Shown here in pieces: positions 228-20,683 of a stretch of 64,000 nucleotides of DNA. Made by a program: the position numbers and the translations under genes. Numbering within the stretch: position 1 is the first letter of the stretch; each line of letters opens with the position of its first letter. Source of the stretch: Tubulanus polymorphus (lineage: Eukaryota; Animalia; Nemertea); the NCBI RefSeq assembly GCF_964204645.1, contig NC_134025.1, positions 14,508,001 through 14,572,000 on the forward strand, written 5' to 3'. Below the pieces are notes generated by a model. That model was not told the origin of the DNA. It saw only the letters and a list, made by a program, of their open reading frames with translations, and did not search any database.

Positions 228-724
228 ATTAGTTACATGTTGTCACTATGGTACCGCAGTGGAGTGAGGAGGGAGGAGTGAGGAGGGAGGAGGGATGACG
301 TCATACCGGAAGTGACGTCATCCAAGATGGCGGCCGGAAGTGGCGGTTAAAATTCAAATTTCAAATTTTGGCGGGAAAATTCAAAATTTTTCCGTTAAAT
401 CCAAATCAAATTATTGACAACAAATCCAAATCAATTTATTGATGATGTTAAATCCAATTTTATTTATTGACAACAAATCCAAATTTATTTATTGGGTACG
501 ACATCCTATGCGTGTGTGTGAGAGGAGGGGGAGGAGTAAATCCTAGATGGCGCTTTTCCAAGGAATCCCGAGTACGGGTGAAACGAAGTAAACCAAAAAT
601 TCCAAAAACAAATGTAAAACAAATTAATGTCAACAATTAAAAAACATTTATTAACAATAAATACGCAATAAATAGAATAAATAAATAAATAGGTAACTAT
701 ATTTTTGTCTTTTCACTCTGTTAC
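228..724 (+). repeat. Left terminal inverted repeat of Polinton-A
   Basis: Reverse complement of 14476-15058 except in the internal motif block (about 310-395). Confidence 0.95.
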
Positions 725-830
725 GTGTTCGGGCAAGTCATTTTCTGACAATAAAAACGTCATGTAAATCCATAAACTAATCATTCTGCTCAGAAACTTT
801 GAACCGTCAACATCGACCTGTATCGCCCAG

Positions 831-1647
831 ATGGATTCGACTAGTGGACAAACTACCTTAGAAATGTCAAGCACACCGATTCGAGCAAAGTCCTCTCTTC
901 AATCTAGAAAAAGAAAACACCCCTCGCTGAAACTCGACTTAAGTAAGTTTTATAACTATTCCGGTATTCGAAACCGTCAAATATTAAGTCATACGTATAC
1001 TGATATAGAATATTCTTTATTGTTTTATAGGTTCAATCGTTAATGACAACGCTGTTCCGTCGAAAGTTCAACGGAATACCTGGAACAATGACCCCGAGCC
1101 TCATTATCTAGGATCGCTTGTGTACGCGAGTGCGAAAACGTGGCAGGGGTTAAAACGTATAGATTTACGATCTTATGAGTGTTGCGAGCGTAGAAAACAA
1201 CTGTATCCCACAAAGAACGGTATTTCGCTAGATCTCCAAGAGTGGGTACATATAGATTATTGTAAAGCCGATATCGAACACGAAATTGCGCGCGTTAAAG
1301 AAGATATCGATTACGTAGGCGTGATGACCGTTGGTCGTTCGAACTTTATCAAAATCTATAGATCTAGTCACGATCATCGTATTTACGTAAATATCCGAAA
1401 ATATGATCTACACGATGAGCTTTTCGACGTAACTCCGACTAGATGCGGTGTAAAACTAACATTGGAATTATGGAAAAAGTTGAAAGACATTAATTTTAAC
1501 GACGATATACCCGAACTAGCCAACATGACGCCCTGTTGGTATGATTCGAGTCACTCGAATCAGGAATACAGGTGTCCGTACTGCGCAAAAGAAACTTCTG
1601 GAGTACGAAAAACACCTGAATACGGTGTAATGATCACCCAAGTATAA
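831..1647 (+). CDS. Spliced gene (exons 831-942, 1031-1647; 242 aa) for a tandem PC4-like ssDNA-binding/coactivator domain protein
   Basis: Two PC4-type motifs: RIDLRSY..YPTKNGISLDLQEW and YVNIRKY..PTRCGVKLTLELW. Donor GTAAGT at 943 and acceptor TTTTATAG at 1030 join the two ORFs in frame (729 nt). Confidence 0.8.
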
Positions 1648-2492
1648 TTAAAGTAGTTTAAAAGATATTAATTAGATAATATCTATATCATAACCGATTA
1701 ACAAAATGTGTAAAAAACATCAATTTATATACGTTAGTTTGCGTTAAACTCTCAGATAGAAATAAGTATCCGAAATAACTAATCCAGGACTTCATTAAGA
1801 TCCGCTCTAACCAAAGAGGATTAACTAAAGTAGTGAGTTTCTATCTTTTATGAATTTTATCGTTTTCTGTGTAGGTATATGGCCTATGTTTATCTATAAT
1901 ATTTATAAAAATATTTATGTTTTTTAGGACTAAATAAAACATTTATTGAATAAAAGATTTCATTTTTGACTCATTCTGATTTAACAATACGTTAATCTAG
2001 CATTTCGTTGCTATCCAGACCCATGATACGGTATACCGACAAAGAAGGCAATTAATTGATTTAGATCAATACACGACCACGATTGGGGAAAATAGGTGTG
2101 AGCAAAACCAATTACCAGTAGCAGATGGGTCGATAGTATCCAAACACCGTTAATTATATGCGGAAGACGAAGGCAATAAAGTGATTTAGATCGGAGACAC
2201 GACCGCAATGGGAAAATAGGTGTGAGGTTTCAAACCAATTACACTAGCAATAATTCGAACATTTTTAGTGCTCATAGCGCTGAGGTAATTAAGTTGTTTA
2301 GATAAAACCGAACAGATGGTCCTATATGCTGGGTGATATTAGACCAGAGTATCAAAAACACCGTTAATTATATGTGATAGAATCCTCAAATACTTTGAGT
2401 AAACTGTTAGACTATAAGAATTAATCAACTAATTAGTCGTCTGACTTAGACCCATAAATAAGGGGGTAGTTTTAGGACAAATCATTTCCAAG

Positions 2493-2834
2493 ATGTCTGC
2501 TATCGGAGGACGTTGGTTTGAAATTCCCGACGAACCGGAGGCAGTGCTTGAGTGCGGCATATGCTTCGAGACGGGGCAGCGGTGCTGGCTACTATGTAGC
2601 CAATGCCAATATAGAAACTTGACGTGTGGAAGCTGCGTCTCCGCCATAATACGCAGAAACCTTCAACTGGGGCGTGAAGACGCTAATGATGTTTTTTTGT
2701 GCCCGTTCTGTAGAAATGTTGTGCGCTGGGCACGTATGTTTGCAGAACATATACGCAAAGAAGAACAGAGAATGCGACGAAACCGACGCCGCCGTCACCA
2801 GAGACGGCAACAACAGCAGCAGCAACGTCGATGA
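2493..2834 (+). CDS. RING-finger-like protein (putative E3 ligase) with basic/Gln-rich tail
   Basis: CGIC..CSQC..CGSC..CPFCR cysteine spacing. TATA-like CATAAATA about 35 nt upstream. Arg-rich tail. Confidence 0.75.
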   Translation: MSAIGGRWFEIPDEPEAVLECGICFETGQRCWLLCSQCQYRNLTCGSCVSAIIRRNLQLGREDANDVFLCPFCRNVVRWARMFAEHIRKEEQRMRRNRRRRHQRRQQQQQQRR

Positions 2835-2877
2835 TGACGATGACGACGACGACGAACTCGGACACTGACCCCTTCCT

Positions 2878-2918
2878 CAAAAGGTCCTTTTCAGGACCAC
2901 TTCAATTTCCAAGAAAGA
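2878..2918 (+). terminator. Replication-dependent histone-type 3' stem-loop plus histone downstream element (U7 site)
   Basis: CAAAA-GGTCCT-TTTC-AGGACC-AC (6-bp stem, 4-nt loop, 2883-2898), followed by CAAGAAAGA at 2910-2918. Confidence 0.88.
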
Positions 2919-3042
2919 GCCAGTGTTTAAACGCCTCGCCTCGCTTTTTGCTTCAGTTTTTTCTCCAAGTTTTAAACAAAACTCTTCTGGTGAGTTTGTA
3001 GAATTTAAAAAAAACGACTAAATTCATATATATAATAGTTTA

Positions 3043-3504
3043 TTATAGCTTAAAATATTTCACGATAAATTTTTTTACAAAATAATCATTATCAGTAGTT
3101 TTGTTTGACAATAGTTTCGTAATATCGCGTACATCGTTACCGTGACATAGGTGTAATAGTACAAATATAGCGTAATAACCGCATACATTGGATAATACAT
3201 TTTGATACATCTTATTATTATATTTCCATTCTATACAATTTTCATCCAAGTATTTTTCTAACATTTTATCATAAGTTCCGGGTTGTTGCCCGAAGGAATC
3301 AAAAAAATAACCGATGCCGTATTCGTTTATATATATAGTTAGCCAGTGTTCACCCGGCTCGTCGTGATTATCAGTGTTTACTATAAAACCAGCGGGATAG
3401 CTCGTTATATTCGGTAGTCGATCGCATGGAAAAACACCAAAGAAAAACGCTTTCAGACATTCGTCTTTTTTCATAAACTCTAAAATTTGGTTTGTGTACA
3501 ACAT
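3043..3504 (-). CDS. Adenain-like maturation cysteine protease
   Basis: GVFPCD, VNTD..PGEHW (His), FFDSFG (Asp), Q..SNVCGYY (Cys). Confidence 0.93.
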   Translation of the reverse strand: MLYTNQILEFMKKDECLKAFFFGVFPCDRLPNITSYPAGFIVNTDNHDEPGEHWLTIYINEYGIGYFFDSFGQQPGTYDKMLEKYLDENCIEWKYNNKMYQNVLSNVCGYYAIFVLLHLCHGNDVRDITKLLSNKTTDNDYFVKKFIVKYFKL

Positions 3505-3509
3505 GGTCG

Positions 3510-4803
3510 CTAATAATCGATCTCTATATGACGTTCTTTAGTTACTTGTAGTAATTCGTCGAAAACGGCGTAAACAATCAAATTCACGTTATGCGGTAAA
3601 GCTTCATCAAATCGCATTTCGATTTTTAATGACCCCTTTTTAATTAGTGACATACTCTGGCGATATATTGAATCCACAAATAAAATAACCATTTTTGAAA
3701 TCCTCGCGTTTTATCCCAATTCCTTCGTTTTTATACAATAAGCCCCGGGCTAAATATAAACCGTGATACACTTCGCAACCGTCGCCACGAGAGTCTATAA
3801 GTAACGGCGAGTTTTGTGCATGGACATTATCAATGGTCACCCCTATATAATTCAATGAATAATCCTTGAAATCGAACGGATTCTTTTTGTAATTACCGCT
3901 CAACGCGTCGTCGTCCACTAAAGCTAAAACAATAGCCTTTGGTATCTTACCGACGAAAACGGAGTCCTTGATAATTGTTCTATGACCTCTTGGAATATTT
4001 AACGATAATAATTCAGTTCTCGAAAAATAATATTTTGCTGTATTCTTTTCCATTGCTTTAGCATGCGCTACTAAAACAGAACTATCCAGTTCTAGTTTAC
4101 GAATGTATAGTTGAGCGCTTTCAATCTTTATACGAAAATCTGGGTTTTCGGCGGGGGAAACTAGAGCAAAACTTTCCTTTGATCGAGTTAGTTTTATTTG
4201 TAAATCTGTATTGTTGATGAAAATCTTATTCATTCTCATTACATCGCTATACAAACGCGAATAAGCGCAAACCAGTTTACTGCCTTTAGTGTAGTTATTT
4301 CTTCTGACCAAACCGGAATTTGCGTCCGGTAAAGTAGGATCGATGTTTGCTTTCTTCCCGGCTTCGTCTTCGGCGTAAAGATCGCATTGTAGCCAGCTGT
4401 TGTTTTTAGTTTCCGAGTTGTAATTAACCATATTTTCCAGCTCACACTTGAACGGGTATAAGCCACCGTCGTGGGTAACCACTCGGTCGTAAAGCGTAAT
4501 TTGTACATCGCTAAATAGACTATAGGCGCCATTGATCATTAAGACTGACTTTTCAGGACCCACATTAGTTCCATCGGCGTTAACTATTTTAAACTGTAGT
4601 TTTAAATACGTGACGTTTAAATCTAAATATTGTTCAGTTTTTGGTACTCTGAATACAATCGGTCCCATATCGTTAATCGATGTAGTAGGCTCATAACTAA
4701 CGTATCGGCATTCTTTGAAATTTATCTGTCTTCCGGGAACTGTAAACAGATCGAGTTCAGACTTGACGCACAATGGCGAATCCTTATGTACTAATAACGA
4801 CAT
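3510..4803 (-). pseudogene. Major capsid protein (double jelly-roll), frameshifted near 3640-3650
   Basis: Polinton MCP-type N-terminus KSELDLF, YLDL, KKNPFDF. C-terminus GSLKIEMRF..IEIDY is in another frame. Confidence 0.9.
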
Positions 4804-5219
4804 AATAAGTACGCTTCAGCGGTTGCTTTGGTTTTTCGTACACGTTTTCCGGTTGTTATACGTCTACTTCCTTTACGACCTTTTATTGATTTTGGGGTTG
4901 AGGTAGATGGTCTTTTTAAGCTTCGTCTGATAATGCGACCCATTGTTTCGATGCCACGATCTTTGATGGCTGTCGCGATATTCTTACCGCCTACCACATC
5001 GCTGGCTACGTGTAAACCAGTTCTCAGTAAATGAGGAACCGCTTGCTTGGCCATATTTTTTAGTAGTGGAATAGCTGGACGAGCCAACCCGCCCAAGACT
5101 GATGCAAATCCAGCACCGCCTTGTACGGGAGACGCCGTGTATACGTCAATACCCGAACCGCATTGGTTCATGTAATATTTACAACAAGCATCCCGATCGA
5201 TTTCGCAGAGAGCCCTCAT
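4791..5219 (-). CDS. Conserved Polinton small virion/core protein with QxGxG-type motifs, amphipathic helix and basic tail
   Basis: YYMNQCGSG and VQGGAGFASVLGGLARPAIPLLK. Lies between mCP and MCP. Confidence 0.75.
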   Translation of the reverse strand: MRALCEIDRDACCKYYMNQCGSGIDVYTASPVQGGAGFASVLGGLARPAIPLLKNMAKQAVPHLLRTGLHVASDVVGGKNIATAIKDRGIETMGRIIRRSLKRPSTSTPKSIKGRKGSRRITTGKRVRKTKATAEAYLLCRY

Positions 5220-6076
5220 AGCAATAAATTCTTCTTTTTAAAATGTAAAGCTAAGTTAACTTTTCCTTTTCTGAACACGGGTATTCTCCCGGATTCAGTT
5301 CTTATAAAGACTTCTATAGTTTGGAAATTCCGTCTCTGTAGTGGGAAGTATTGTAACTTGGTAAATTCTCGACCAACAATTTTACCAAAATTTCTCGGAT
5401 TCAAATCAATCATGCGCAAGAGATTTGCGCTTTGATGTCCGACCAGCTGAGGTTCGATAACATCTGTATATATCATTAAATTATGATAATCGACGTTTAT
5501 ATCCGAACTGTGGGCTGCAGTAACCTCGATGTATTTGTAAACTGTTTTACTATCGGATGAATCTGACAGTATAGGACCATGTATTTTAGAGCCTTGACGA
5601 TGATCTGTTATATCTTCGTTAATCGGTATATTTTCTTTAAAACCCAAAATCCACGCAATATCACTCGTAAAAGTTATTGTGCAGTTGTCATAAAATCGGA
5701 TACAAACTTTATGACTTAGTTCATTGAATGCAAGAACTATCTTATTATCATACCATTTGTTTAACTCTGTTTGTATAGCGACAATTAATTGGGTAATTGT
5801 CAAATAACGACCTTCGGGTATATTGAGATAATGAGTTCCTTGCTCAGACGACGTACATTGAAATCTACCATTGTTCACGTTATTGAAATCTGCCATAAAG
5901 TTTATTTGATGTAAAGCGCAAACCCATTTGCCTTGAAGTGAAATCGGTGTTCGTAATCGAACTTTAAAACTATGTTGCGTATTATCGGGATAAATGTCTA
6001 CGCTAGCATCGCTTTTGAGATATACGTAAAAATCCTGACTCATGTTAACTTCTTGATATCTCGAGCGTTCACCCAA
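5216..6076 (-). CDS. Minor capsid protein (penton); likely start MSQDFY
   Basis: FYVYLKSDAS..YPDNT..FKVRL..LQGKWVCAL, IYTDVIEPQLVG..LLR, C-terminal LHFKK. Confidence 0.88.
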   Translation of the reverse strand: MGERSRYQEVNMSQDFYVYLKSDASVDIYPDNTQHSFKVRLRTPISLQGKWVCALHQINFMADFNNVNNGRFQCTSSEQGTHYLNIPEGRYLTITQLIVAIQTELNKWYDNKIVLAFNELSHKVCIRFYDNCTITFTSDIAWILGFKENIPINEDITDHRQGSKIHGPILSDSSDSKTVYKYIEVTAAHSSDINVDYHNLMIYTDVIEPQLVGHQSANLLRMIDLNPRNFGKIVGREFTKLQYFPLQRRNFQTIEVFIRTESGRIPVFRKGKVNLALHFKKKNLLL

Positions 6077-7122
6077 GAATTGAATTTATCGGGATAGTTA
6101 TACCACTTTACCAAGTATTGTTTTCGAACGCCTTTACCCCGAGTTTTAATTATCGACTCGATCTTATACGTTTCATCCTTTTTATTGAATTTTATCAACT
6201 CGTATCCGTAAAACACGCCATCTATTGTTACGTCTTGTAAATCTTTAATCTTGTATACAGGTGGCTCACGCATAATTCTTTTCGTAACGATAAACAACTC
6301 GGTACTCCACCCGGGTAAATAGCCTTTTTGGAATTGTCCTTTGAGTTCGCTTATTCGCACAGTGTCGCCAACGCGAAACTTAAATTTCACGCGTTTTTTA
6401 CTACGGATTGTACCGTATAGATTCTTGAAAACTTTGTACGCGTTTAACTCGTTGACATCGTTTGGAGCCATTTTTATACTACGATGAAACGATTTATTGT
6501 ATGACGCTACTATATCTTTAAGCAAATCGATATATCTGTATGAATTTCTATGCGAAAATATCTTATACATTTACGATTTTAAAGTACGTATCCATCTTTC
6601 GATTAAAGCGCATTTTACTTCGTTTTTACTTTGGAAAAAACGTACGCCTTCGTTTTTCAGATACGCCTGCGTTTTTGAACCGACAAATTCTGTGCCTGAA
6701 TCCGATTGAATAACGCCAGGTTTCCTAATCTTGAAAATCTTTTTAAAACCATCCACAACGGTAGAATTAAATTTAATCTCTAACGGTATAGCGAACGCGT
6801 ATCTAGACAATACATCAATAGCCGTCAATAGAAATTTGTAACCGTCGTTGTGTTTCGAAATATTCGAAACGTCGCACAAGTCAACCTGAAATTGTTCGTT
6901 CACTCGATAGGCTATAGTTTTGTTTCTGGGAAATCTCTTTCGTACTTTGGCGTGTAACGTATGAACTTCTTGTTCGGCTAACCAGTCTCGTATCTCACGT
7001 AAAGAGATATTTTTGTTTTCTTTTTTACAAATCCGTAGTAATGTATTTGCGTTTGAAAAACTTCCTTCTTTGTCGACGCCATAATATTGATTCGCCAGGA
7101 ATCTTTTCTGTTCGGCTTTCAT
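6040..7122 (-). pseudogene. Retroviral-like (rve) integrase with C-terminal chromodomain, one in-frame stop at 6571-6573
   Basis: QVDL, IDVLSRY, QSDSGTEF, IERWIRTLK catalytic motifs. Chromodomain YLVKWYNY..NSWV. TAA between LKS and MYK. Confidence 0.93.
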
Positions 7123-7243
7123 CGATTACAGTTGTACTACCGCAACACGTGCTCAATACGCAATTAACTCTATTGAATTGACACTCGAAATTCGGCTCCT
7201 CCTGCTTCAAACAACAACAACAAAATAACTTTCGCCAATTCAT
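7025..7243 (-). CDS. Small cysteine-string protein overlapping the integrase start
   Basis: ATG start, LFCCCCL and STCC motifs, basic C-terminus. Same strand as its neighbours. Confidence 0.5.
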   Translation of the reverse strand: MNWRKLFCCCCLKQEEPNFECQFNRVNCVLSTCCGSTTVIDESRTEKIPGESILWRRQRRKFFKRKYITTDL

Positions 7244-7298
7244 CTTTTCTCATAATTTTATTTACACTTAAAAAAACAATATGCTTTTAATGACTTTT

Positions 7299-7823
7299 TT
7301 ATTTGGAACAAAGAATGGTATAGAATAGAACTTCTTCGTAGGCTTCCTGTAAATCGTTGAGTTTTTTGGCACCCGACAATATTAAAGTACCGCCGTTATG
7401 TACTATACATTTTATTCCGTTTTCACATTTGTACACAAAACCGGGAAATATTTCAGGATTATAATCGCCGTCAACTGTTTTGGAAAGTTCCACTAAGTCT
7501 ACGCGTCGACCGATTTTTGCAACTCCAGTCATAGTTTGTATTTTCAAGTTATTCAAGTTCCCCGTGTATCCCATCCTTTGTATCAAACGAGCAAATTTCC
7601 GTGTACTGCATCGGCTGTTAAACTCGCTTTTACATCCTGTCACTACCATTTTTCCATTTACGAACAATAGACAGCTACCTTGTATACTTCTATGTTTCCA
7701 CATCAATCCGCTAAACTTTCGGGGGTCATAAACGACATTACATAATTTTCTCGCAATATCGGTTAAATTTAAACGGCAATTCAAATGCGCTGTGGATACA
7801 ACGTTTACAACCTCAATCATCAT
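7299..7823 (-). CDS. TATA-binding protein (TBP)-like, element-encoded
   Basis: Two TBP repeats: NVVST..YDPRKFSGL..LLFVNGKMVVTGCKS and YNPEIFPGFVY..GTLILSGAK. Confidence 0.93.
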   Translation of the reverse strand: MMIEVVNVVSTAHLNCRLNLTDIARKLCNVVYDPRKFSGLMWKHRSIQGSCLLFVNGKMVVTGCKSEFNSRCSTRKFARLIQRMGYTGNLNNLKIQTMTGVAKIGRRVDLVELSKTVDGDYNPEIFPGFVYKCENGIKCIVHNGGTLILSGAKKLNDLQEAYEEVLFYTILCSK

Positions 7824-8011
7824 TAACGTGCTTACTCGACCACAAATGAAACCGCTATATCCATTCCACTAATAATATAATTGCAAAACCCGCTGACCGT
7901 TGACACGCCCAAACACGAATAATGAAACGCTCATAACATATCAATCCGCCACAAATGAAGCCCGGTCATTGGTCAAAGCTTTTTGACAGTCGTGATTAGG
8001 TTTTCTAGTCG

Positions 8012-8572
8012 TTAAAAGGATAACCAGTTTGTGAAATTCACATTGCCATCCCGCACTCCACACAGTCCGGATCCGCTCTGATCATACTTTGGTTTCTTTC
8101 TCTTTGGAGACAACGACATATCTAAATCTACGGTAAGTTCACCTTTGATACTTCTCTTTAACGTTTTATTCGAAATAAGACTCAATGGTACGTTCAACTC
8201 GTTAAATGCAGATATATATTTATCTAGGCCGATATATTCTTGATCCATTTTAGTTTGTACTAACGACATGTGTAAAATATCGTCAATGTTGCTTCCACGA
8301 ATTAGATTGTCCTTGTAAATCAGTTCGCCTTTATCATTCCATTTCAAAATTCCTGGATTATCTTCAAAAAATGCTAATAGGGATTTACATTTTTTCCTAA
8401 ATCTTAGCGGTAACCGATCAATAATCTTCTGCGTAGTATATTTGCCCGAGATTTCTTTATTATCTTGTGTCGTTTGGTTAATATCCTTTTCTACAGATGA
8501 TTTATGTATTTCTTGCTGCAATAACTGATTATACTTTAAGTATTTGAGATCGTCGGGTATTTTGTTATCCAT
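8012..8572 (-). CDS. Conserved Polinton hypothetical protein (N-terminus probably disrupted, original start about 8690)
   Basis: WNDKGELIY..GSNIDDIL motif that I recognise from Mavericks. QSGSG near the C-terminus. Confidence 0.7.
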   Translation of the reverse strand: MDNKIPDDLKYLKYNQLLQQEIHKSSVEKDINQTTQDNKEISGKYTTQKIIDRLPLRFRKKCKSLLAFFEDNPGILKWNDKGELIYKDNLIRGSNIDDILHMSLVQTKMDQEYIGLDKYISAFNELNVPLSLISNKTLKRSIKGELTVDLDMSLSPKRKKPKYDQSGSGLCGVRDGNVNFTNWLSF

Positions 8573-8701
8573 TAGAGGGTTGTAGGTAGCGGGTGTTTCT
8601 TATTCTTGTTGACGTTCCTGACTCGCGATAAAAGCTTGTATCGAGGGTAACATGGAATCGGGTAAAATGATTAACTTTTCAACGTTCTTCATGCTATTGC
8701 C

Positions 8702-9073
8702 TTATCTACTATTCGGTTTGCGGCGTTCGTTAAAACAGACGTCAGTATAGGTTTTCAAAAGTGGTAGTAAAATGAATCGCAGAAATCCACCTTTTTGCGA
8801 AATCATTCCTCGTTTATGTTTAATGGCTATCGAATTGTTGGCCAACATGCGTATGTAACGTTTATGTTGTTTCAACACGCGTTTATCTTTGTCGCTATAT
8901 TTTATATTTCCTGCTAAACTGTTTTTGGATATCTCGCATACGCACTTGATTAAGTCTGACGGAGCCGATTCTATCAACGCTCTACGTTGTTTCTTATTAC
9001 ATTTACCCAACACGTGTAAATGATGTATATATTTTTTCACTCTTTGTAACGAGTTGTTTTTACGCTGCGCCAT
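8702..9073 (-). CDS. Conserved basic Polinton protein (putative core protein)
   Basis: ICE/CxN-type motif (KCVCEISKNSLAGNI) and QKGGFL. Adjacent to the ATPase. Confidence 0.75.
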   Translation of the reverse strand: MAQRKNNSLQRVKKYIHHLHVLGKCNKKQRRALIESAPSDLIKCVCEISKNSLAGNIKYSDKDKRVLKQHKRYIRMLANNSIAIKHKRGMISQKGGFLRFILLPLLKTYTDVCFNERRKPNSR

Positions 9074-9109
9074 GGTCTTCTTTTATTAGTTAACCGATGA
9101 ATTATACTT

Positions 9110-9760
9110 TTAATGAATTTTCTTTGTTTTGTATATTATATGGTATTTATCGCTAGGAAAAATTCTAGTTCTCAAACGCCATCTATCATCAGTTTTTGGT
9201 TTAAAATCCAGTAAAAGATAACCGTGGGGTTCCTTGGTCGCGTCTCTAAAGGCCGCTTCAATTTCGTTTTTCAAACCGGCTTGTTGAGCGAGAACGCGAA
9301 CTTGATTTCTATCTCGCGCGTTTTTAAAAACGACAATATAATGCGAGTTTAAACTAATCGTTCTAAACTCTTTGCCTTTCGGGAAAATATTTTGTACAAT
9401 CGTAATAACGCTGATGTTGCGATGATGGGATCCTCGTGTATACAAAGAAGCTAACGCGTTATTACTCCCTACTTCATTCATCAGATCGTCGACTATAATT
9501 AATGTACGTTTACTGCCATCTATTTTGTCGTAGAGTTCCCCGGAAAAACCCTCTACAAACTGCACTCCAAACTTTTCCAATTCGTTGAACATTTCGGGTT
9601 GCGCCTCCGCGTAACACCAATATATCTTATCGGGATTTTTTTCGACAAGATTCTCCGTTATAACTTTTTTGACAAACACACTTTTACCGGAACCCGTCAG
9701 TCCTGCAACTATCATCGTGAATGGATGGGATAAGTATCTCGGGCCATTATACTCTGCCAT
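9110..9760 (-). CDS. Genome packaging ATPase (A32/FtsK-like)
   Basis: Walker A GLTGSGKS, Walker B LIIVDD, TRGSHHRNISVITIVQN. Confidence 0.95.
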   Translation of the reverse strand: MAEYNGPRYLSHPFTMIVAGLTGSGKSVFVKKVITENLVEKNPDKIYWCYAEAQPEMFNELEKFGVQFVEGFSGELYDKIDGSKRTLIIVDDLMNEVGSNNALASLYTRGSHHRNISVITIVQNIFPKGKEFRTISLNSHYIVVFKNARDRNQVRVLAQQAGLKNEIEAAFRDATKEPHGYLLLDFKPKTDDRWRLRTRIFPSDKYHIIYKTKKIH

Positions 9761-9845
9761 CTTAGTGTTTTAAGTGTTTTAGCTGCGAATGAAAAACACT
9801 TTTAATAGAAACAAGGGGGTTGTCAATATTTGAAAAATACAGTAC

Positions 9846-10127
9846 ACGCATTTTATAGTTTACTAAACTTTTTATTTTCACTAAACGAGGTTCTAACAAT
9901 TTTCAGCTTTCTAAAATATGGTTTGCACTTTTTTAATAGGAAAATACTATACGGTTTTGACAAAAAATCATAAGTTATATTTGAGGTTTAGATTTTTTTT
10001 CGATTTACGCAATTTATAGTTTACTAAATTCTTTATTTTCACTAAATGAGGTTCTAACAATTTTCAATTTTGAAAAATATGGTTTGCACTTTTTTAATAG
10101 GAAAATACTATACGGTTTTGACAAAAT
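9846..10127 (+). repeat. Two imperfect direct repeats of about 120 bp (period about 161) in the divergent intergenic region
   Basis: ACGCA.TTTATAGTTTACTAAA...GGAAAATACTATACGGTTTTGACAAAA occurs twice. Confidence 0.85.
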
Positions 10128-10217
10128 AACATTAGTTAAAATTACGGTTTGACTATTAATCGATTTTAGATATTCGAGGTTTGACTATTTTTTCATAAAC
10201 GCTATCGGACTTTCGTT

Positions 10218-10535
10218 TCATGTGTTAATATAAATTCTTCGTATGAAATATTTACGCTCCGGTTGAAGTTCAATCACGTCTAAACAAAATATAGCGCCGA
10301 CAATTTTATAAAGGAATCGCTCCGTCATATTTAATTCTTTCAAAACAATGCATAATCCATCTGGTTCGTCGCAATCTACAAATTCTCTGGCTAAACGTTG
10401 AATATCTGTTAAATGCCTTTGACCGAGTAACACTTGGTGTAATCGCGTGTAATCCAAAATCGTGAACAATAGCCTTCGTAATAGTCCGTCCATTGTACTC
10501 GATAGTCGCTCCATAATTGACTTGTAAACACTCAA
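10218..10535 (-). CDS. Hypothetical protein
   Basis: Globular-looking 105-aa ORF divergent from the zinc-finger gene. No recognisable motif. Confidence 0.35.
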   Translation of the reverse strand: MSVYKSIMERLSSTMDGLLRRLLFTILDYTRLHQVLLGQRHLTDIQRLAREFVDCDEPDGLCIVLKELNMTERFLYKIVGAIFCLDVIELQPERKYFIRRIYINT

Positions 10536-10588
10536 GATTAGTCTCTTTTAAAAATATTTCATATTCAATCTTTTTTTCCTCACAGAAA

Positions 10589-11090
10589 ATGTATTCATGC
10601 CAATACTGCCCGTTGACCTTTGCCAATGAACTTGGTTTGGAACAACACCAGCAACTGCACGTTGGTAAGAAGGGGTTTAAATGCTTGAGCTGTTGCAAAG
10701 CATTTGCGTGTGCGCGCGATTTAACGCACCACACCGTCATTTGTATGGCACCCCAACCGATTCAGCAACAGGCGTCTGTAGCTTTGGCTATTCCGGTAAG
10801 TAGATTAGAACCGTTCGTTTTAATTATTATGTGGTTGAACGTATTACCAAATATCTGTTTTTTATTTTCAGCAAATATGGGACTGCAATGCGGTCTTAAC
10901 TTTGCTAACCAGCAAACGCTGACGCGACACATGGGTTCCCATTTTGGGACTTCTGATTGTCAATGCGTCACACACATGTGGTAAGGTGTTTGCGCGCAAA
11001 GACCATTTGAAGCGACACGCTAAAACGTGTAAGGGATACGTTGTACAACACGACGTATCGTGGTCTGTACTACATCGGAGGCTAAACCGG
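10589..11090 (+). pseudogene. Spliced multi-C2H2 zinc-finger gene (intron 10796-10871), frameshifted in exon 2
   Basis: Fingers CQYC..HQQLH, CLSC..HTVIC, QCGLNF..HMGSH, TCGKVFARKDHLKRH. GTAAGT donors at 10796 and 11091, acceptor TTTTCAG at 10871. Confidence 0.75.
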
Positions 11091-11125
11091 TAAGTTTTGA
11101 AATTATGAGTTACAAAGAAAAACCG

Positions 11126-11127
<2 letters not shown>

Positions 11128-11175
<48 letters not shown>
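11128..11175. repeat. (TA)n microsatellite
   Basis: Direct reading. Confidence 0.95.
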
Positions 11176-11177
<2 letters not shown>

Positions 11178-11230
11178 TTTTTTAATATACATTCAATGTC
11201 ATTGTCTATTGAAGGGGTCCGAGTGTCCGA

Positions 11231-14200
11231 GTGCCGATTGCCTTACATACGAATGCCGGTGTGCCCCAAGGCAAGTGTGGATTGCGCGAGTTGGACGTAT
11301 TTTCGAAACAATTATCCGAATACTACATAATTGTTGTAACGGGGGATCATATCGCGTATCACATTTTATACGAGAACAATCGCAATGTGTTAGACGCTCA
11401 GGGTGTAAATGCCAAAAAACTTATATTATTATATACAGATGGCCATTTCGATGTAATTACATCGATGGCTTCATTTACCTGTCGCGTATACTATTGCTAC
11501 ATTTGTAAAAAAGGGTACATGAATACCGAGCGACATCGCTGTACCGATAAATGTAGACTTTGCTTTGGGGATTGCGTAGAACAACGGGGAAATTATTTGT
11601 GTATAAAATGCAATATCTATTTTAAATCGGAAGCGTGTTTAGCCAGACACTGTAGACCAAGAGCAGACGGGGTAAGCGTATGCGATTCGAGAGCGAGATG
11701 TTTACAATGCGGGTCTATTGTATCTAGAAAGAAACTTGATCCTAAATCTCACGACTGCGGTCAAAAATACTGCAGTTCTTGTAAAGAGCAAAAGCCTAGC
11801 GGCCATCTTTGCTACATCGGGGTCGCCAAAAGTCAGGATCATGTGGTTTCTGAGGAGCAGGGTAACCCTCATACACTAATTAACCCGTATTTGGATGCCG
11901 ATAAGGCTGGCGATGAGCTAAAATATAGAAAGTTCATCGCATTCGATTTCGAAACAACGACTGTGGAATCGAACCACGTTGTAGTATTGGGTATAGCGCA
12001 TAGAATATGTCAAATGTGTAAATGGTCGAAACGGACCCCTGACTCGGTTTGCGATTATTGCGGTAAACATGAACACGTGTTTAAAACGGACTCTGAATTC
12101 TGCGAGTGGTTGTTTACGGAAGAGAATAGGGGCGCCATTGTTTTCGCGCATAATTTTCAATCCTTTGACGGTTACTTTATTCTTCAATATTTGGTGTCAC
12201 AAGGTATATTACCAGATATTGTACCAAACGGCGGGAAAATAATGACTATGACCGTCACACATTTGGACATAAAGTTTTTGGACACGTTGAATTTTCTACC
12301 AATGAAACTCGCTAAATTACCCGAAACACTAGGTATTCCCGAGTTGAAAAAGGGCTATTTTCCGTATAAATTCTGCACTCGCGAGAATATTGATTACGTC
12401 GGACCTATTCCCGATGTAGAATATTACAATCCCGACGGTCTAAGTTCGAGCGAAAGGTCTGATTTAATAAAGTGACATAGCGATCGGCAGTCGGAACATT
12501 TCATTTTTGATATGCAACGCGAGTTGGTCGAATACTGTCGTTCAGATGTGGATATTCTGATGCAATCGGTCGTAAATTTTCAACATCAATTCTTTGCTCT
12601 TTCGGCTGTTGATCCATTTCGTAATAGCATCACTATAGCATCGGCGTTCAATGTGGCATTACGAACAAACTTTTTGAAACCGAAAACAATAGGGCTAATC
12701 CCTCCAGGCGGTTATAAACCTAATGCAAAATTTTCCAAGATGGCAATTAACTGGTTGAAATGGGTATCCACAACGAATGACATACGAGTCCAACACGCGT
12801 TGAACGGCGGCGAAGTATCAATTGACCGCTTTAAAGTAGACGGTTATCACGCCGAATCCAATACCGTGTACGAATTCACGGTTGTTTATATCACGGATGC
12901 CCTAAGTGTTTCAAAAATCCGGATTTGATATCTCCGGTACGACCCGATCGTAAATTTGGTGAATTATATCAGGCCACATTAGAAAAAACATCTAAAATTA
13001 GAGCTTTGGGTTACAATTTGGTAGAATTTTGGGAACACGAATATCGTGACTTGGTTAAAGAAAACCACGCGTTTGCAGATTTTGTCAAGAAATCTGATAT
13101 TCTCGATCCATTGCAACCACGTGACGCATTTTTTGGAGGTCGTACGAACGCGATAAAAATTTATCGCCAAGCCGAGGGTGAAGAAAAAATCAAATATATC
13201 GACATATGCTCGTTATACCCGTATGTCAACAGTCGTTGCAGTTATCCAATCGGTCATCCGACTATTGTGACTGAAAATTTCCGCGATATTGAAAATTATT
13301 ACGGGTTGATAAAGTGTAAGGTTTTACCGCCTCGGGGTTTATATCTACCAGTGCTCCCATATAGATCGGGTGGGAAATTGACTTTCCCATTGTGTCGAAC
13401 GTGCGCTAATGAAAGCAATCAGCGCGAAAAGTGTCATCACTCGGATGATGAACGTTCGATAACGGGTACCTGGGTAACTTTAGAGGTACAAAAAGCAGTG
13501 AAACTTGGTTATAAGATATTAGATATATATGAAATTTGGGATTGGGAAACTAACGAAACGGGTTTATTCGAGGATTATATAGGAAAATTCCTCAAAGTTA
13601 AAACTGAAGCTAGTGGCTGGCCGGCTAAAGATATGTCTCGCGAACAGAAGGATAAATTCATTTCCGATTATTTAGAGAGAGAGGGTATCCAACTCGAAGA
13701 AGATAAGATTAAGAAAGCCAAGGGGATGCGAACAGTCGCGAAATTATGTTTAAATTCGATGTGGGGTAAACTCGGTCAAAACGAAAATAAGACGACGGCC
13801 AAATATATTTCGGACCCCGGAGAATTACATAGAATGCTTTTGGATGAAACTTAGAGATAAGCGATCTGTTGTTGTGTAATGACGAGGTGTTAAGAGTGCA
13901 TTACAAAAAACGCGAAGAATTTGTCGAATCGACAAACAAAACCAGCGTCGCTTTAGCAGCTTTCACAACGACTCATGCGCGGCTTATTCTCTATAGTTAT
14001 ATGGAGAAATTAGGGGAACGAACCCTATACACGGATACCGACTCCATTATTTATAGCGTGAAACCTGGTGAATGGGATCCGCCAACCGGTAATTTTTTGG
14101 GTGATATGACTGATGAGTTGGTTGATAAATACGGGGAGGGGTCGTTTATTTCAGAATTTGTTTCGGCTGGACCCAAAAATTATGCATATCGGGTATTTAG

Positions 14201-14474
14201 TCCTAGAGATAATGAATTCTCGACTGAATGTAAGGTTAAAGGGATCAATTTGAATTTTCGAAACAAGCAAATTGTAAACTTTGGTTCCATGGTGGATATA
14301 ATTGTCGAAGAAAAGTACGACCATCATTACATATTAAATCCCGACAAAATCAATAGAAAGATCAAGGACTGCTCTATTTACAATAGAGACGAACGTAAAA
14401 TATATCGCACCGTTTATACAAAACGAGCTTTTGACCCCGCAGATCGGTATAACACGCTTCCGTACGGATATTAA
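11231..14474 (+). pseudogene. Protein-primed family-B DNA polymerase with inserted Vsr-like nuclease domain; split by stops and frameshifts (about 12475, 12880, 13854)
   Basis: Exo motifs FDFET, HNFQSFDG, YCRSDV. Pol motifs GGRT, DICSLYP, KLCLNSMWGK, YTDTDS, GPKNY, KVKG. Vsr-like VDGY..YEF..WEHE. Confidence 0.95.
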
Positions 14475-14475
14475 T

Positions 14476-15058
14476 GTAACAGAGTGAAAAGACAAAAATA
14501 TAGTTACCTATTTATTTATTTATTCTATTTATTGCGTATTTATTGTTAATAAATGTTTTTTAATTGTTGACATTAATTTGTTTTACATTTATTTTTTGAA
14601 TTTTTGGTTTACTTCGTTTCACCCGTACTCGGGATTCCTTGGAAAAGCGCCATCTAGGATTTACTCCTCCCCCTCCTCTCACACACACGCATAGGATGTC
14701 GTACCCAATAAATAAATTTGGATTTGTTGTCAATAAATAAAATTGGATTTAACATCATCAATAAATTGATTTGGATTTGTTGTCAATTTATTGATTTGGA
14801 TTTTAACCGCCAATTCCGGTCGCCATCTTGGATTACGCCACTTCCGGTCGCCATCTTGGATTACGCCACTTCCGGTCGCCATCTTGGATTACGTCACTTC
14901 CGGTCGCCATCTTGGATTACGTCACTTCCGGTCGCCATCTTGGATTACGTCACTTCCGGTCGCCATCTTGGATTACGTCACTTCCGGTATGACGTCATCC
15001 CCCCTCCCCCTCCTCCCCTCACTCCACTGCGGTACCATAGTGACAACATGTAACTACT
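14476..15058 (-). repeat. Right TIR of Polinton-A with six tandem 28-bp units (14813-14980)
   Basis: Unit CTTCCGGTCGCCATCTTGGATTACGYCA x6. The remainder is the reverse complement of the left TIR. Confidence 0.95.
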
Positions 15059-16040
15059 TGTGTGTGTAGAACGTTTGGGCGAAGGTATTATCCCCCGGTA
15101 TCACGCGTAAAACAAACAGAAAACATATTTTCATACATAGGTCATCGCATTATAGAAATTGAACTGTTGACAAGTTGTATTAAATCTGTATAGATGAAAC
15201 ACTTTTAAGGAAAACGCATTATGTCCGTAGTTCCTTTATATCTACTATTGACTGTGCGCCTCGGGCTCAGTCAACTCGCCATCTTCATGATTGTGTGATG
15301 GAGTGACTATCACCACAGAGAGTTGACCAGATCCGAAGGAGTAAAGTCGAAGAGCGTGTTGTATTTTGTGAATCTAAACAGCATCTGACTATATTACTAC
15401 AGTATAGGGTTACAGTACAGTACACATGGCGCGAAAACATCAACCAATCATATAAGAGAGACATCAACGAATCATATAAGAGAACCAACACATGTCGTTC
15501 TCGACACTCCGGGGGCGGCGGTAAGCGCCGAATTTGAAAGTTTACTCTAAGATAACATGTATCGCATTAAATTGAAAGATATTAATAATCACTATACTAA
15601 GTAATAGTTTCACGTATGAAATTGAATCGCCATAAGGGCTAGAAATAGAGACATTGCGTTGTGTTGAATAAATGAGTACATAAAGACTATTTCATAATAA
15701 ATGACTATCTATAGAAAGCAAGTTAACATCGTATCGAATAACATTTAAATTCATTAATCCGCTTTATAGTAATAATAAGTAATTCCCAACACCAAGAGTG
15801 ATTAAACGATATTTCAAGTCCTTTCCGGTAAAGAAAAGTTTCGAAGCAAACGCGTTATTTGTTTAAGATCGGAAACGATTAAAGTTCAGAAAACGCGTAA
15901 AAACGATAACGTGTTTGACCTCGCGGCCGACGAAGAATTTAACGTAAACACGCATGCAGAATCACGTGATGTAAACATAGTCGAGTAAAAAGGCAATAAT
16001 AGCCTACGCATCGGTTTCATACATATAATCCAGACAGAGT

Positions 16041-16442
16041 TCAGTCTTTTAATAATTTCGTCCAATTTCTAATCTTTCGCTGAGCGTTGGCTGCGGCCAG
16101 CCTGGTCGCACGCGTTTTCGGTTGATTTGTATCGGTAATCGTACCGGTATCCGATGAATCATCGACAGATTTCGCGTTAATTTCCAGCGGATATAATTTC
16201 GATACGGGTCGGTTCGTACGGCCGGTACTTGTTCTAATATCCGCTGATCGCACAAGTCCATCGGCGCTAACGTTTAATTTCTCGACGAGTGCCATACGCC
16301 AGTGTATTCGCTTCTTGTTGTCCTCGTGCACTAAAACAATGCCGCCAGTTTTTATTTTGTTTTCGAGTTTCCCGTTGAGTTTCGCACGTTCTCTGAGCGC
16401 TATCAAGTATTCACGGCTCCATTGTCGTTTGAATGAACTCAA
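16041..16442 (-). pseudogene. BEL/Pao pol C-terminus (post-integrase DUF5641-type region)
   Basis: WSREYL..LRE, WRMALVEKL..DGLVRSA..RPVSKLYPLE. Confidence 0.88.
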
Positions 16443-18880
16443 AAGTTCGATCCATATTTTTCCGGATCAATGATCTTTAAGATACCCGCTTTTTCTAACT
16501 GTTCGTGTTGTATCGACATGGTAGTCTCGTCGACAGATTCATCAGTTTTAATTTCGTTATCGGCTTGAAATCGCGAGACTGGCCAATCGCCGACTTTCAA
16601 CCAGTCGGGCCCGTGCCACCATAGTGTTGAGTTGGCCAGTTGATGAGTGGTTATACCGCGTGTTAGTAGATCCGCTGGGTTATCTTGAGTCGGTACGTAA
16701 TTCAATTCCACATCGAGATTGTCTAGCTTCAAGGAGTTTATCTCGTGCACCCGATTTTGAACGAAACACGGAAGTCGATTTTCACTCCTAGTCCAACTTA
16801 GGACTATCTCGCTATCGGACCAGATAATCGCTTTGCTGAAATTGTAGCATGGATTGAGCGCATCGAATGAATATTTGATCAAACGGGCGCCGACGACGGC
16901 GGCCATTAGCTCGAGGCGCGGTAACGAGAGCTGTTTAACGGGTGCAACTCTGTTTTTCGCTATGACAAGCGCGGTGTTTTCCCCTTGACGTAGATAAACG
17001 GTGGCTCCGTAGCCACGTGAACTCGCGTCCACAAAGCTATGTAACTCAGTATCGGTATCCTCCGACGGCGCAGAAAAATACTTCCGGTTAATCGTTATTT
17101 TTCTCGCATTTTGTAGATCGCGGTACAAAGTTTTCCAGTTATTGCTCACCTCGTCTGGTAATAATTCATCCCACGAGACATTCGCTTTCCATAATTCTTG
17201 GATGAATATTTTTGATTTGATGTGAACCGGTGATAACAGTCCTAACGGATCATAGAGACTCGCCACGCTCCTGACGATTTCGCGCTTCGTAATAATTTCT
17301 GGTTCGCTATGCTCGATCGCTTGTTTGTATTTAAGCCTGTCCTGATTGACATCCCACAGGAGTCCTAGGTTGCTGACAACGTCATGTCCGTTCAATAAGT
17401 TGTCTTTACTCGCAATATGTCTGAGGTTTTCGCTGTTACTAGTCCACTCACATAGTTTAAATCCTGCGTCGGACATCATCCGATTCGCATTATGGTAATA
17501 ATCGATCGCTGTCGATTCGTCTTTCACCGACGTAACGACGTTGTCTACGTATATGCTCGATTTCATATCGTTAGCTACCGTGCTCTTATCTTTGTCCAAA
17601 TGTGATTTTATGACGGCATTGAGAATAAACGGCGAGCACGCTGCTCCGAATAATACAGATTTAAATTGATACGTAATGAATTTGCTTTCGGGGTCGTTTG
17701 GATCGCTTAGCCAGAAAAATTTCGTGAATTTCCGGTCTGGCTCGGCTAGGCCCACTTGAAGGAAGGCCTTTTCGATGTCGCTACTAAGTCCAACGTCGCA
17801 TGTACGAAAGTTCATCAAGATCGAACCAAGATCGTTAAGCAGTAGCGGTCCTTTTTCCAGGCAGTCATTTAAACTCGGAGACTGACGCGTACGGAAGCTA
17901 CAATCGTAGACGACGCGAATTGGTGTTGTAGCTGAGTCTTTCTTCACCGAGTAGTGCGGTATATAATCACCTTCGGATTCGTTTTCCTCGTGGATCGACT
18001 CGATGAATCCACGCGCTATTTGATCTTCGATAATTCGATCATAGATTTTTCGGGTATCGTTATTTAGTTTCCTGACAATCGCTCGCGTTCGGTTGGCTGT
18101 GTTCAGTCTATTGGTCGGTAATGGAGGGTGTTCCGGCCTCCATGGTAGCTGCGCAACGTATTGGTTTCCCGCCATTTCGATACAATCCGTCGCGTAATTT
18201 TCAAACGTAAGTTCTTCGTTTATCGGGTGTTTTATCCCGAGTGTTTCGACCCTCCAAAAGTTTTCGAGTTGGTCTCGTTCATGAGTATCATCGGTGAGGA
18301 TAAAGTTCGCGTAGTCACGACGGTCGTGACTCGAGTTTTTTAGCGGACCCGAAAGAAGATAACCGAGTTTTGACGCAACCGCTGTGGGGCCGTTGCCCCT
18401 GACGACTTTGTCCTCAACTAAGGACCAGTAGTAGTTGGATCCAATTAATAGAGCGATTTCGAACGATTCACGACCGCTTACAGGGTGCGCCAGTTTCAGA
18501 CCCGATAGATAAGGTAAATTACGTGTATCTTTGATGTGATTACTCATAGGTGTCGTAATGTTCGATTTTACGAGTGCGCTTATCGGCACGTCTCCAGTTT
18601 CGGTTTTAATGGCTAACTTGACCCGGTCGTATTTCCTTTGTTTAGATTTAGTATCTCCGAAGATCGAAAGATTCAGTATTTCGCTCGACTCCGGTTTCAA
18701 GTTTAATTTCACGGCTGTTTCCTCCGTGATCCATGTTCGGGTCGAGCCTTCATCAAACAATATGCTGACGGTCTCGGAGTTTTGATGTTTTTCATCAGTA
18801 ATTTCAGCAACAGCTGTCTTTAAGACGACTGGCGTCGATACGGTGATTGAGTCTTGTGAATTTAGCACGCCGATGTACAT
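16439..18880 (-). pseudogene. BEL/Pao pol: aspartic protease, reverse transcriptase, RNase H
   Basis: LFDEGS, TTPIRVVYD, DIEKAFLQ, FGAACSPF, YVDN, FVDAS, PRLELMAA, NPADLLTRG, WWHGPDWL. Confidence 0.93.
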
Positions 18881-19243
18881 TTGCCTGTCATCGCATCGCG
18901 GGTTCTGATCGTTATGACCAGCTGATTGTGGTTTTTTGCCGCATAGAGATGTATGGTGTTCATCTGAACATACGGAACAGCAATAGCGTGACCTGCAATC
19001 TCTGGCTTAGTGATTTTTTCTCAAACAATTTCGGCAGAGATATTCTCTTTTCACTATATCCATCCGTTTTTCCAGAGTGTTATAGATCAGACAATCCCTT
19101 GATTTGTGGTCTTTCTTGCAGTAGTTACATTGAATTTTATAATTACGGTCTAGACGGCTTGTTTGATTTCGTTTTCTGTGATGAATTAATAACGACGTGT
19201 CTGTGGTTTCGTGTTCTGAATCGCTGATGAGCACACTTTGAAT

Positions 19244-19693
19244 CGGTCATCCTTATTACCGAGATGATGTATTTTACCGAGATGAACCGAGATCAACCGA
19301 GATGAAATTAAATATAACATATTCATTTATTCCATATCGATTTTAACCATTGAAATCATATTATATCAGTAATAAATGCCTGCTGGGTTCATATTTTACA
19401 TATTTTGTCGGATATTTTTGGAAAAATAACTTTTAACTTTACCGAGATGAGATCGTCGATCAATCAAATTCAATGAAATTTTATTGCTAACCGAGTTTAC
19501 GTTTTTTGAGTCAAAATTTCTTTAAATAAAAAAATATGTAAAATATGACTCTAGGAGGTATTTATTACTGATATAACATGATTTCAAGTGTTAAAATCGA
19601 TAAGGAATAAATAAATATGTTATATTTAATTTCATCTCGGTTGATCTCGGTTCATCTCGGTAAAATACATCATCTCGGTAATAAGGATGACCC
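19244..19693. mobile_element. Palindromic MITE inserted in BEL gag
   Basis: Long TIRs (GGTCATCCTTATTACCGAGATG...). Perfect 8-bp TSD CTTTGAAT at 19236-19243 and 19694-19701. Confidence 0.92.
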
Positions 19694-20664
19694 CTTTGAA
19701 TGGCTTGTCCTGCCAGACCCGCTTGAATCTCTTTCTGTAACGCTTTCTTCAATTCAGTTAAATTCCATGCTGAATCACCATGGTCGCGTGTGATCTGAGT
19801 TTTAATTCCCGACGGGAGTTTCTCGAATATGACTGGAATCAGGAGATCCCCATAGCTTTCCTCGGTCTTACCGAGAGATTTTAGACCCCTGATATAGCCT
19901 TCCAGTTCATCGTAGAACTTTTTCATCTGTTGTACATTTTCGCGTGGTTTTGGCAATTCCCACAATGCCTTCATATAAACGTTGATCAATTTATGAGTTT
20001 GTCCGTACCTGTTTTTCAAAAGTTCAATGGCTTCGACGTAGTTGTTATTGGTCAGTGATAAGCCCTCGACGCATAGGGCCGCTTCTCCGCTGAGTTGCGC
20101 ACGAAGATACTGGAATTTTTGGATGTCGTCTAATCCGGTATCGTTGTGGATAGCTGATTCGAATGCATCTATAAAGCCGATCCATTGTAGTAAATCCCCG
20201 CTGAATGTCGGTAAATGTAACTTAGGTAGATTGACTTGCCTTGATTTGTTGTTAATCGGTTGATGAGTTGTCGTTGTCGTCGGTTTCGTGTCATTATTGA
20301 ACGTTTCAATAAAGAATCTATACTTTTGTATTTCGATAATCCGTTCGAATGCGAAATCATCTGCTTCTGCGATAGATGATTGTAGATTTTCATCAGGCGT
20401 CAACGAGAGAATTGTTTGATCTAGTTCTTGTATGAGGTTTAGCTTTGTGACCGCTGATGATATGATTGCTACCAGATCTTGAACTTCGGCTAGGCCTACT
20501 TTTGTTGATCCGGATTGTAGGCTCTGGTAGACCTCTTCTGCACGATTGAGGTATTTAGATAACTGCCCTCGGTGGGCCAACCGAGATGCTGTAGGACGCT
20601 TCGTTTGGTCCATTTCGTTTTGACGCTCAGTTTCGTCATTCGCATTTTCCGATGTCGTCGACAT
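19694..20664 (-). pseudogene. BEL/Pao gag (DUF1759-type); zinc-knuckle part continues below 19236
   Basis: LPKLHLPTFSGD..W..F, QKFQYLRAQLSGEA, NYVEAIELLKNRYG. CNYC..H..C and CRNC..H in the 19007-19234 ORF. Confidence 0.9.
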
Positions 20665-20665
20665 A

Positions 20666-20683
20666 ATCCTGGTCACGGCACCA
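20666..20683 (-). other. Primer-binding site complementary to the tRNA-His 3' end
   Basis: TGGTGCCGTGACCAGGAT directly inside the 5' LTR. Confidence 0.85.

Follow-up and report, generated by a model that had tools for sequence, protein, structure and literature searches.

A Polinton of Tubulanus polymorphus carries a selected, core-only TATA-binding protein that may act as a late-promoter factor

Giant viruses and mirusviruses that carry a TATA-binding protein (TBP) mostly encode their own polymerase. TBP is described as frequent in mirusviruses (PMC10132985). In beta- and gammaherpesviruses, KSHV ORF24, EBV BcRF1, and HCMV UL87 are TBP mimics that recognize a TATTWAA motif located about 30 bp ahead of late starts; an additional N-terminal domain lets ORF24 bind the polymerase carboxy-terminal domain (CTD), and five more viral proteins are needed (PMC7498053, PMC6541308). 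For Polintoviricetes, a 2026 preprint on the diversity of Polinton-like viruses does not name TBP as a gene in its main text, where TATA, TBP, and PC4 have no occurrence, and Maverick/Polinton virions are stated there never to have been seen (bioRxiv 10.64898/2026.06.19.733378). A TBP label does appear in a figure legend for MELD viruses with an adintovirus-like PolB, in the non-animal-dataset section of one study (Starrett et al. 2021, PMC8502044). That legend label aside, our literature search, with Repbase, subscription journals, figures, and bioRxiv supplements outside its scope, returned no study of a Polinton TBP family. Virus-coded TBPs are known as a kind, and the Polinton family is apparently undescribed in the literature searched. 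Here we report a Polinton TBP that is real, selected, and widespread, and that is not universal.

The window analyzed is a 64,000-nucleotide stretch of the Tubulanus polymorphus genome (NC_134025.1, positions 14,508,001 to 14,572,000), and it contains a complete 14.8-kb Polinton at 228-15058 with terminal inverted repeats (TIRs) at both ends and a 6-bp target-site duplication (TSD), TGTGTG, at 222-227 and 15059-15064. The left TIR (228-724) and the right TIR (14476-15058, ending in ACTACT) were delimited by inverted-repeat alignment and match over 328 nt at 98% in one alignment and at 470 of 485 aligned letters in another. A 28-nt tandem array at 14780-15003 (about six copies) occupies part of the right TIR and is much shorter in the left one; its unit combines a CCGCCAT-like word with ACTTCCGG, words that we take to resemble YY1 and ETS sites. 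Element-wide k-mer counts revealed no striking repeat. The element ends are confirmed by reads and contigs that skip exactly 228-15058: 110 reads (run X4) and contigs from X1 and X2 join the flanks at 221 and 15059 without the element, with a 6-letter overlap. These element-free joins may represent empty alleles or paralogous sites, the flank itself being repetitive. An LTR retrotransposon with 213-nt repeats that are 98% alike lies 235 nt from the right end of the Polinton (15294-20898); its ORFs, read by eye, look to us BEL/Pao-like.

Hallmarks of Polintons are present in the element, including the long TIRs, the 6-bp TSD, a DNA polymerase B of the protein-primed type (pPolB) as well as an rve integrase (both broken), an A32-type ATPase, an adenain-type protease, and a major capsid protein placed in the double jelly-roll type on Atlas features. 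On the plus strand, a tandem PC4-like protein fills a stop-to-stop frame at 1009-1647 (two Pfam PC4 stretches, E 1.3e-12, with homologues in relatives) and a putative short upstream exon, read by eye, begins at about 831. It is followed by a RING-like small protein at 2493-2834 (weak Pfam match, E 6e-4, below the cut-off), a probably spliced C2H2 zinc-finger ORF at 10589-10984 (Pfam E 4.6e-9), and the pPolB at 11213-14474 (Pfam DNA_pol_B_2). The minus strand encodes the adenain-type maturation protease at 3043-3504 (Pfam Peptidase_C5, E 4e-4, just under the cut-off), the major capsid protein (MCP) at 3640-4803, a 142-aa basic/amphipathic ORF at 4791-5219 that has no Pfam match and from its position is probably a virion protein, a putative minor capsid protein (mCP) at 5216-6043, and an rve integrase with a chromodomain at 6040-7122 (Pfam rve). 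The mCP finds weak matches in relatives L032 and L038 and its single-sequence fold has a pLDDT of 31; its label is a tentative assignment from synteny. Upstream on the same strand lie a putative 72-aa Cys-rich basic ORF at 7025-7243 between TBP and the integrase (no Pfam match), TBP itself at 7299-7823, a 186-aa ORF at 8012-8572 (no Pfam match), a 123-aa basic ORF at 8702-9073 with a homologue in a relative, the A32/IVa2-type packaging ATPase at 9110-9760 (Pfam Pox_A32, E 6.6e-7), and a putative 98-aa ORF at 10218-10514. Pfam scanning of 18 element ORFs gave no match to TFIIB, TFIIA, or a polymerase of the transcription machinery.

In this complete Polinton, TBP is thus flanked by the integrase on one side and the ATPase block on the other, within the structural/integrase gene block where a first, sequence-only reading of this DNA had placed it. 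That reading also called the integrase, MCP, and pPolB of this copy broken, and all three are. The integrase is split by an internal stop, and the MCP frame ends early, at 387 aa compared with 435 aa in a relative (27% identity; Atlas, 0.97 to an MCP cluster of which 16% of members have a DJR-like domain); no PDB sequence matched the MCP of a relative. The pPolB is in pieces, with a stop, frame changes, and about 370 N-terminal residues not found. A (TA)n run occupies 11127-11175, where those residues of relative L032 would lie. The contrast between an intact TBP and its broken neighbours carries no information, however: a 525-nt gene escapes the 5-6 breaks seen in ~9.9 kb of other coding sequence with P 0.73-0.77 by chance alone. 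Intactness as a sign of host domestication was rejected on the same chance estimate (P ~0.75) and on the broken TBP copies found among reads.

The TBP gene is a stop-free, intronless minus-strand ORF of 174 residues that is collinear with TBP cores. Pfam TBP (PF00352) matches the protein in two stretches (E 8e-35, 119 bits; curated cut-off 22.9), and phmmer aligns the human and yeast TBP cores across residues 4-165 at E ~1e-31. The AlphaFold model, built from a 29-row alignment, has a pLDDT of 97.7, and this predicted structure adopts the saddle fold of human (1cdw) and Arabidopsis (1qn3) TBP with a TM of 0.97 and an rmsd of 1.1 Å. Its Atlas label is the generic TBP family only. These results bear out the intact, intronless, two-repeat core of the initial description, and the residues of this divergent TBP are exactly those first described: Phe is kept in KFSG (F37), LLFV (F54), and IFPG (F126), and His replaces it in IVHN (H142), leaving three of the four DNA-intercalating Phe.

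Read depth over TBP is 38-41x and that over its neighbours 43-60x, so close that most element copies in the species carry the gene. Broken copies occur among the reads: 8 of 39 have a 4-nt insertion, 4 of 32 have a 1-nt insertion, and 6 reads skip 64 nt. A sister TBP copy from the same species shows 65 differences over 441 nt and no gap; third positions account for 21 of the 34 differences listed (P 6e-4), and among those listed 13 of 20 single-change codons are silent versus ~21-26% expected.

In a phmmer search of 1.84 billion representatives, short proteins, mostly of 169-176 aa, outscored most cellular TBPs. A quick tree of the window protein and 143 of the 150 phmmer matches (7 short matches were dropped) grouped 28 short TBPs with the window protein at an SH-aLRT of 95. 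A profile search then yielded 2,856 proteins, the best 120 of which include 113 new clusters, several of them multi-copy on large eukaryotic contigs. A W-x-H/N-x-x-I/V signature occurs in 103 of these 113 clusters versus 0 of 122 non-clade TBP hits and supports the clade separately from any tree. A more careful tree of 52 hand-picked rows, with 24 other IMG/VR loci left out, recovered a 22-row family clade (support, 100/98) apart from 12 cellular TBPs, 2 TRF2-like, 2 archaeal-like, and 6 IMG/VR viral TBPs; the group labels, including those of the two TRF2-like rows, are our own assignments from motifs, support toward the base of this tree is weak, and its long branches warrant caution. Constraining the window protein with two animal-type TBPs was rejected by the AU test (p 9e-39), and its similarity to cellular TBPs is ~35-38%. 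The family is a clade of ~170-aa core-only TBPs inherited with a clade of Polintons, and a cellular TBP is its likely ultimate source. An origin from the sampled giant-virus TBPs was rejected, with distant BFVD matches and a separate clade in the tree.

The family takes in eight Mercenaria gene models spread over several chromosome-size contigs, and the multi-copy bivalve models named "TATA-box-binding protein-like 1", which are family members, are probably genes of Polintons and not paralogues of the host. Two family TBPs (P0236 and P0270) come from 1.1-1.4-kb contigs of an assembly assigned to a bacterial gill symbiont and probably represent host-animal DNA in that assembly. Other TBPs that fall outside the clade, are short and divergent, and lack the W-x-H signature (P0058, P0066, P0113, P0119, P0140, P0068, P0069, and P0143) may be further mobile-element TBPs. 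No family member was found in IMG/VR with the window protein; there the strict motif gave 0 hits, the relaxed motif gave 13 hits, none of which is a TBP by tblastn, and an alignment-based search returned 30 distant viral TBPs without Polinton neighbours. GTDB gave 0 hits apart from one 14-residue chance match, and a single-protein word search with the window TBP gave 1 unrelated hit among 10 candidates.

A family motif, which the window protein itself does not match, was used to search metagenomes and identified 16 loci falling into about five related groups. All 16 encode TBP, and an integrase lies alongside it in 13; the three integrase-less loci are only 1.1-1.8 kb long, and two of them have a PC4-like gene. 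One locus, L032, encodes MCP, integrase, ATPase, and an intact 1,555-aa pPolB beside TBP. Across 13 full TBP ORFs (L031, L036, L040, and L043 were left out as cut or frameshifted), 19 pairs share at least 60% identity, and the 12 unsaturated ones have a dN/dS of 0.10-0.19; that of the integrase N terminus is 0.05-0.18. Among 12 elements, identity in TBP covaries with identity in the integrase (Mantel r 0.77, permutation p 2e-4). The dN/dS values and this co-divergence together indicate that TBP has long been carried by these Polintons under selection, and TBP is an element gene under purifying selection. A neutral copy of host TBP, retrotransposed and captured only recently by the window element, would agree with the intronless gene and with the likely cellular ancestry. 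The refutation test set by the sequence-only reading fails, though: the low similarity to cellular TBPs, the AU rejection of an animal-TBP grouping, and the carriage of a constrained TBP by sister copies and distant Polintons leave this explanation with a negligible probability. The HMM search, structure prediction, tree, and dN/dS analysis by which the sequence-only reading proposed to check its claim were all run and confirmed TBP identity and selection.

A second Polinton occupies about 46700-64000 of the window (20-26% GC, with an inverted repeat of 46729-47055 versus 63674-64000) and encodes an integrase at 48492-49601 along with two ORFs read by eye, one ATPase-like and one DNA polymerase B-like (59929-62793). 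The part of it within the window has no TBP or PC4-like match, so Polintons at large may be able to do without TBP. Elsewhere, the window holds reverse-transcriptase-like frames of a non-LTR retroelement (41482-43691, by eye) and a 558-aa single-frame coiled-coil ORF (32821-34497) that is probably a host gene; by eye, we take it to resemble an outer-dynein-arm docking protein.

The initial reading grouped TBP with PC4-like and C2H2 proteins as a basal-transcription kit. Both partner ORFs are real by their Pfam matches, and the C2H2 gene is not shared: it has a match in 0 of the 16 relative loci, most of which are short, and was rejected as a member of a conserved kit. Two PC4 domains per chain are found at 1009-1647 of the window and in L031, L033, L039, and L046, and a C-terminal Cys/His cluster in most copies (C..H..CxxC) may bind zinc. 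PC4 binds single-stranded DNA (ssDNA), and phage T5 has a PC4 homologue to which a part in DNA replication is ascribed (PMC7549692, PMC9600219). By analogy, the PC4-like protein may be a replication ssDNA-binding protein and need not be transcriptional; with a fold that also serves in replication and an unshared C2H2 gene, the three-part "kit" is an overstatement. The same phage analogy (PMC7549692), together with the 13 of 16 loci in which the integrase adjoins TBP and the 7 in which a PC4-like gene does, would suit a TBP that bends DNA in replication, excision/integration, or packaging alongside these two partners. Gene order differs between elements, however, and the retained TFIIB stirrup and the promoter-positioned box at structural genes, both described below, suit transcription better, so we hold a DNA-bending role to be very unlikely.

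To examine the protein surfaces, yeast positions were mapped onto 142 family members through the TBP-core alignment, with roles assigned as in yeast TBP (N69/N159, the E186/E188 stirrup, helix-2 R137/R141, and E93). The four intercalating positions are Phe in 128, 139, 114, and 115 of the 142, and all four together in 77. His at the fourth position, which the sequence-only reading singled out, is present in the window protein (H142) and in its closest relative, P0003, and is no family trait: only 16 of 142 members have it, and it was rejected as the defining change. In the central Asn pair of the DNA face, N69 is kept in 141 of 142 and N159 is changed to Thr in 139 of 142; several DNA-facing Val/Thr/Leu residues of TBP are polar in most members, with repeat 1 of the window protein nearer to TBP. 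The TFIIB stirrup glutamates are kept in 115 (E186) and 133 (E188) of 142, the window protein having Asn and Glu, respectively, and the basic helix-2 residues R137 and R141 are each kept in 138; the E93 position on the TFIIA face is changed in the family. These surfaces read as a protein that would have retained its grip on DNA and on host partners while its sequence choice changed. They also bear on a decoy that would bind TFIIB, TAF1, NC2, BTAF1/Mot1, or Brf1 and divert or dampen host transcription while not engaging promoters productively. Among the most invariant residues are those of the stirrup and the helix-2 arginines, presumably partner surfaces, and the window copy lacks one intercalating Phe. 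A pure decoy would have no need of the intercalating Phe kept in most of the family, nor does it predict the matching promoter box in relatives, and we consider a decoy distinctly unlikely.

Two promoter classes are shown by the upstream sequences of the relatives of the window element. A YRTAAGA box lies within 90 nt ahead of 22 of 25 MCP, mCP, integrase, and small-gene starts, at -46 to -33 in 17 of those 22, and is absent before TBP (0/16) and PC4 (0/4) starts. Counts by strand are 60 for the TBP strand and 11 for the opposite one (shuffle mean, 21). The TAA of the box is not the stop of a long ORF at 21 of 31 sites and overlaps an upstream stop codon at the other 10. It is missing ahead of the ATPase (0/3), seven small genes, and 3 of 11 integrases. 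The box is often doubled, and five sites, just 7-12 nt ahead of the ATG, are too close for a TATA-like role. The Fisher P values for the two classes are inflated, because the loci are related and were selected by the motif. The second class, in which a TATA-like run is followed downstream by an initiator-like TCA(G/T)Y, precedes 9 of 16 TBP starts versus 0 of 25 in the first class, the pattern having been set post hoc; it is also found at the one pPolB start and before the window TBP, where a TATA-like run with TCATT at 7845-7879 (minus strand, likewise picked post hoc) is a candidate host-driven early promoter. In 6 of 16 TBP promoters (L039, L040, L041, L042, L043, and L046), a CACGTG-type E-box immediately precedes the TATA-like run, and 0 of 40 other upstream regions have one.

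Baculovirus and nudivirus late promoters use a TAAG-type start-site motif, and the RTAAG within the box, its frequent doubling, and the five sites close to the ATG would all fit such an initiator, read by a helper-virus polymerase or another factor, with TBP serving early or other promoters. The 17 sites at -46 to -33 instead have the placement of a TATA-like element whose leader is very short, and we hold the initiator reading to be very unlikely. In the window element, YRTAAGA is found at -46 to -33 of none of the 14 annotated starts. TTAAAAG is found at -37 to -47 of 4 of the 14, namely the ATPase (9799-9805, 45 nt upstream), the 123-aa ORF (9107-9113, 40 nt), the 98-aa ORF (10545-10551, 37 nt), and the 72-aa ORF (7284-7290, minus strand, 47 nt). 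This enrichment has a P of 0.006-0.02 against random or shuffled windows and of 0.10 against AT-rich windows, and TTAAAAG as the candidate late box of this lineage is suggestive only; 8-mer and 9-mer tests of the upstream regions were not convincing. Since TTAAAAG is itself close to a normal TATA box, it also agrees with a general TBP supplement that would act on ordinary TATA-type promoters, boosting or replacing scarce host TBP (in germ cells or under host shut-off) without choosing late genes. The near-canonical DNA face of repeat 1 and a predicted fold almost identical to that of host TBP are in keeping with such a supplement. The family-wide changes on the DNA face point to altered specificity, however, and the box of the relatives is non-canonical and confined to structural genes; a supplement is in our estimate unlikely.

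The reading we prefer, with somewhat better than even confidence, is that an early host-type promoter yields TBP, which acts through an element-specific TATA-variant box and host TFIIB and RNA polymerase II at the capsid, packaging, and integrase genes. The element TBP would be made early, driven by host TBP, would then bind the TATA-variant box, and once bound would bring in host TFIIB and polymerase II, whose targets would be the virion, packaging, and integrase genes. The late-promoter factor proposed by the sequence-only reading thus gains from the promoter classes of the relatives, and loses from the window, where YRTAAGA is out of place and TTAAAAG a suggestive candidate. A broader version, in which a rewired mini-TBP with a lineage-specific box (YRTAAGA, and perhaps TTAAAAG here) forms a one-protein early/late switch throughout a large clade of animal Polintons, is tentative and in our view falls a little short of an even chance. 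A preference of the element TBP for its cognate box over TATAAAAG and scrambled DNA would support the late-promoter model.

Such a model matters for how Polinton capsid genes are switched on, and a conserved TBP and a 7-nt motif bear on a virus-like late programme. If true, the one-protein switch would describe a staged, helper-independent virion programme and a natural library of altered-specificity TBP/box pairs, and the more than 100 natural variants of the family offer material on how the saddle sets sequence choice.

Compared with known systems, the window element has in common with Polintons, Mavericks, and adintoviruses (Polintoviricetes) its TIRs, 6-bp TSD, pPolB, rve integrase, A32 ATPase, protease, and capsid gene. 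The TBP label in the MELD viruses may denote the same family, and the text searched contains no analysis of TBP distribution, selection, or promoters (PMC8502044). Giant-virus TBP-like proteins in BFVD share the TBP fold in a double-stranded DNA virus but only 6-19% identity, with TMq at most 0.80, and the window TBP is much closer to cellular TBP than to these; giant viruses also differ from the window Polinton in that its 18 scanned ORFs include no polymerase match. The Polinton family forms a clade separate from the two rows that we labeled TRF2/TBPL1-like from motifs. With cellular TBP (1cdw and 1ytb), the window protein shares the two-repeat saddle (TM 0.97; 31-34% identity in structural alignment), three of the four Phe, and the second stirrup Glu, whereas the Polinton family differs in having no N-terminal extension, the W-x-H signature, Thr in place of N159, and a mobile element as its carrier. 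The herpesvirus ORF24 type provides a model of how the protein might work, a virus-coded TBP with a late TATA variant and host polymerase II. ORF24 has a CTD-binding domain, whereas the Polinton TBP consists of the ~170-aa core alone and still aligns with host TBP by sequence; without that N-terminal domain it is not a member of the ORF24 type, and as a bare core it would need host TFIIB or another bridge. A late-only TATA-variant box is herpesvirus-like in the relatives (22/25 versus 0/20) and suggestive only in the window, and a Polinton late system of this kind, if true, would be far smaller than the six-protein system of herpesviruses.
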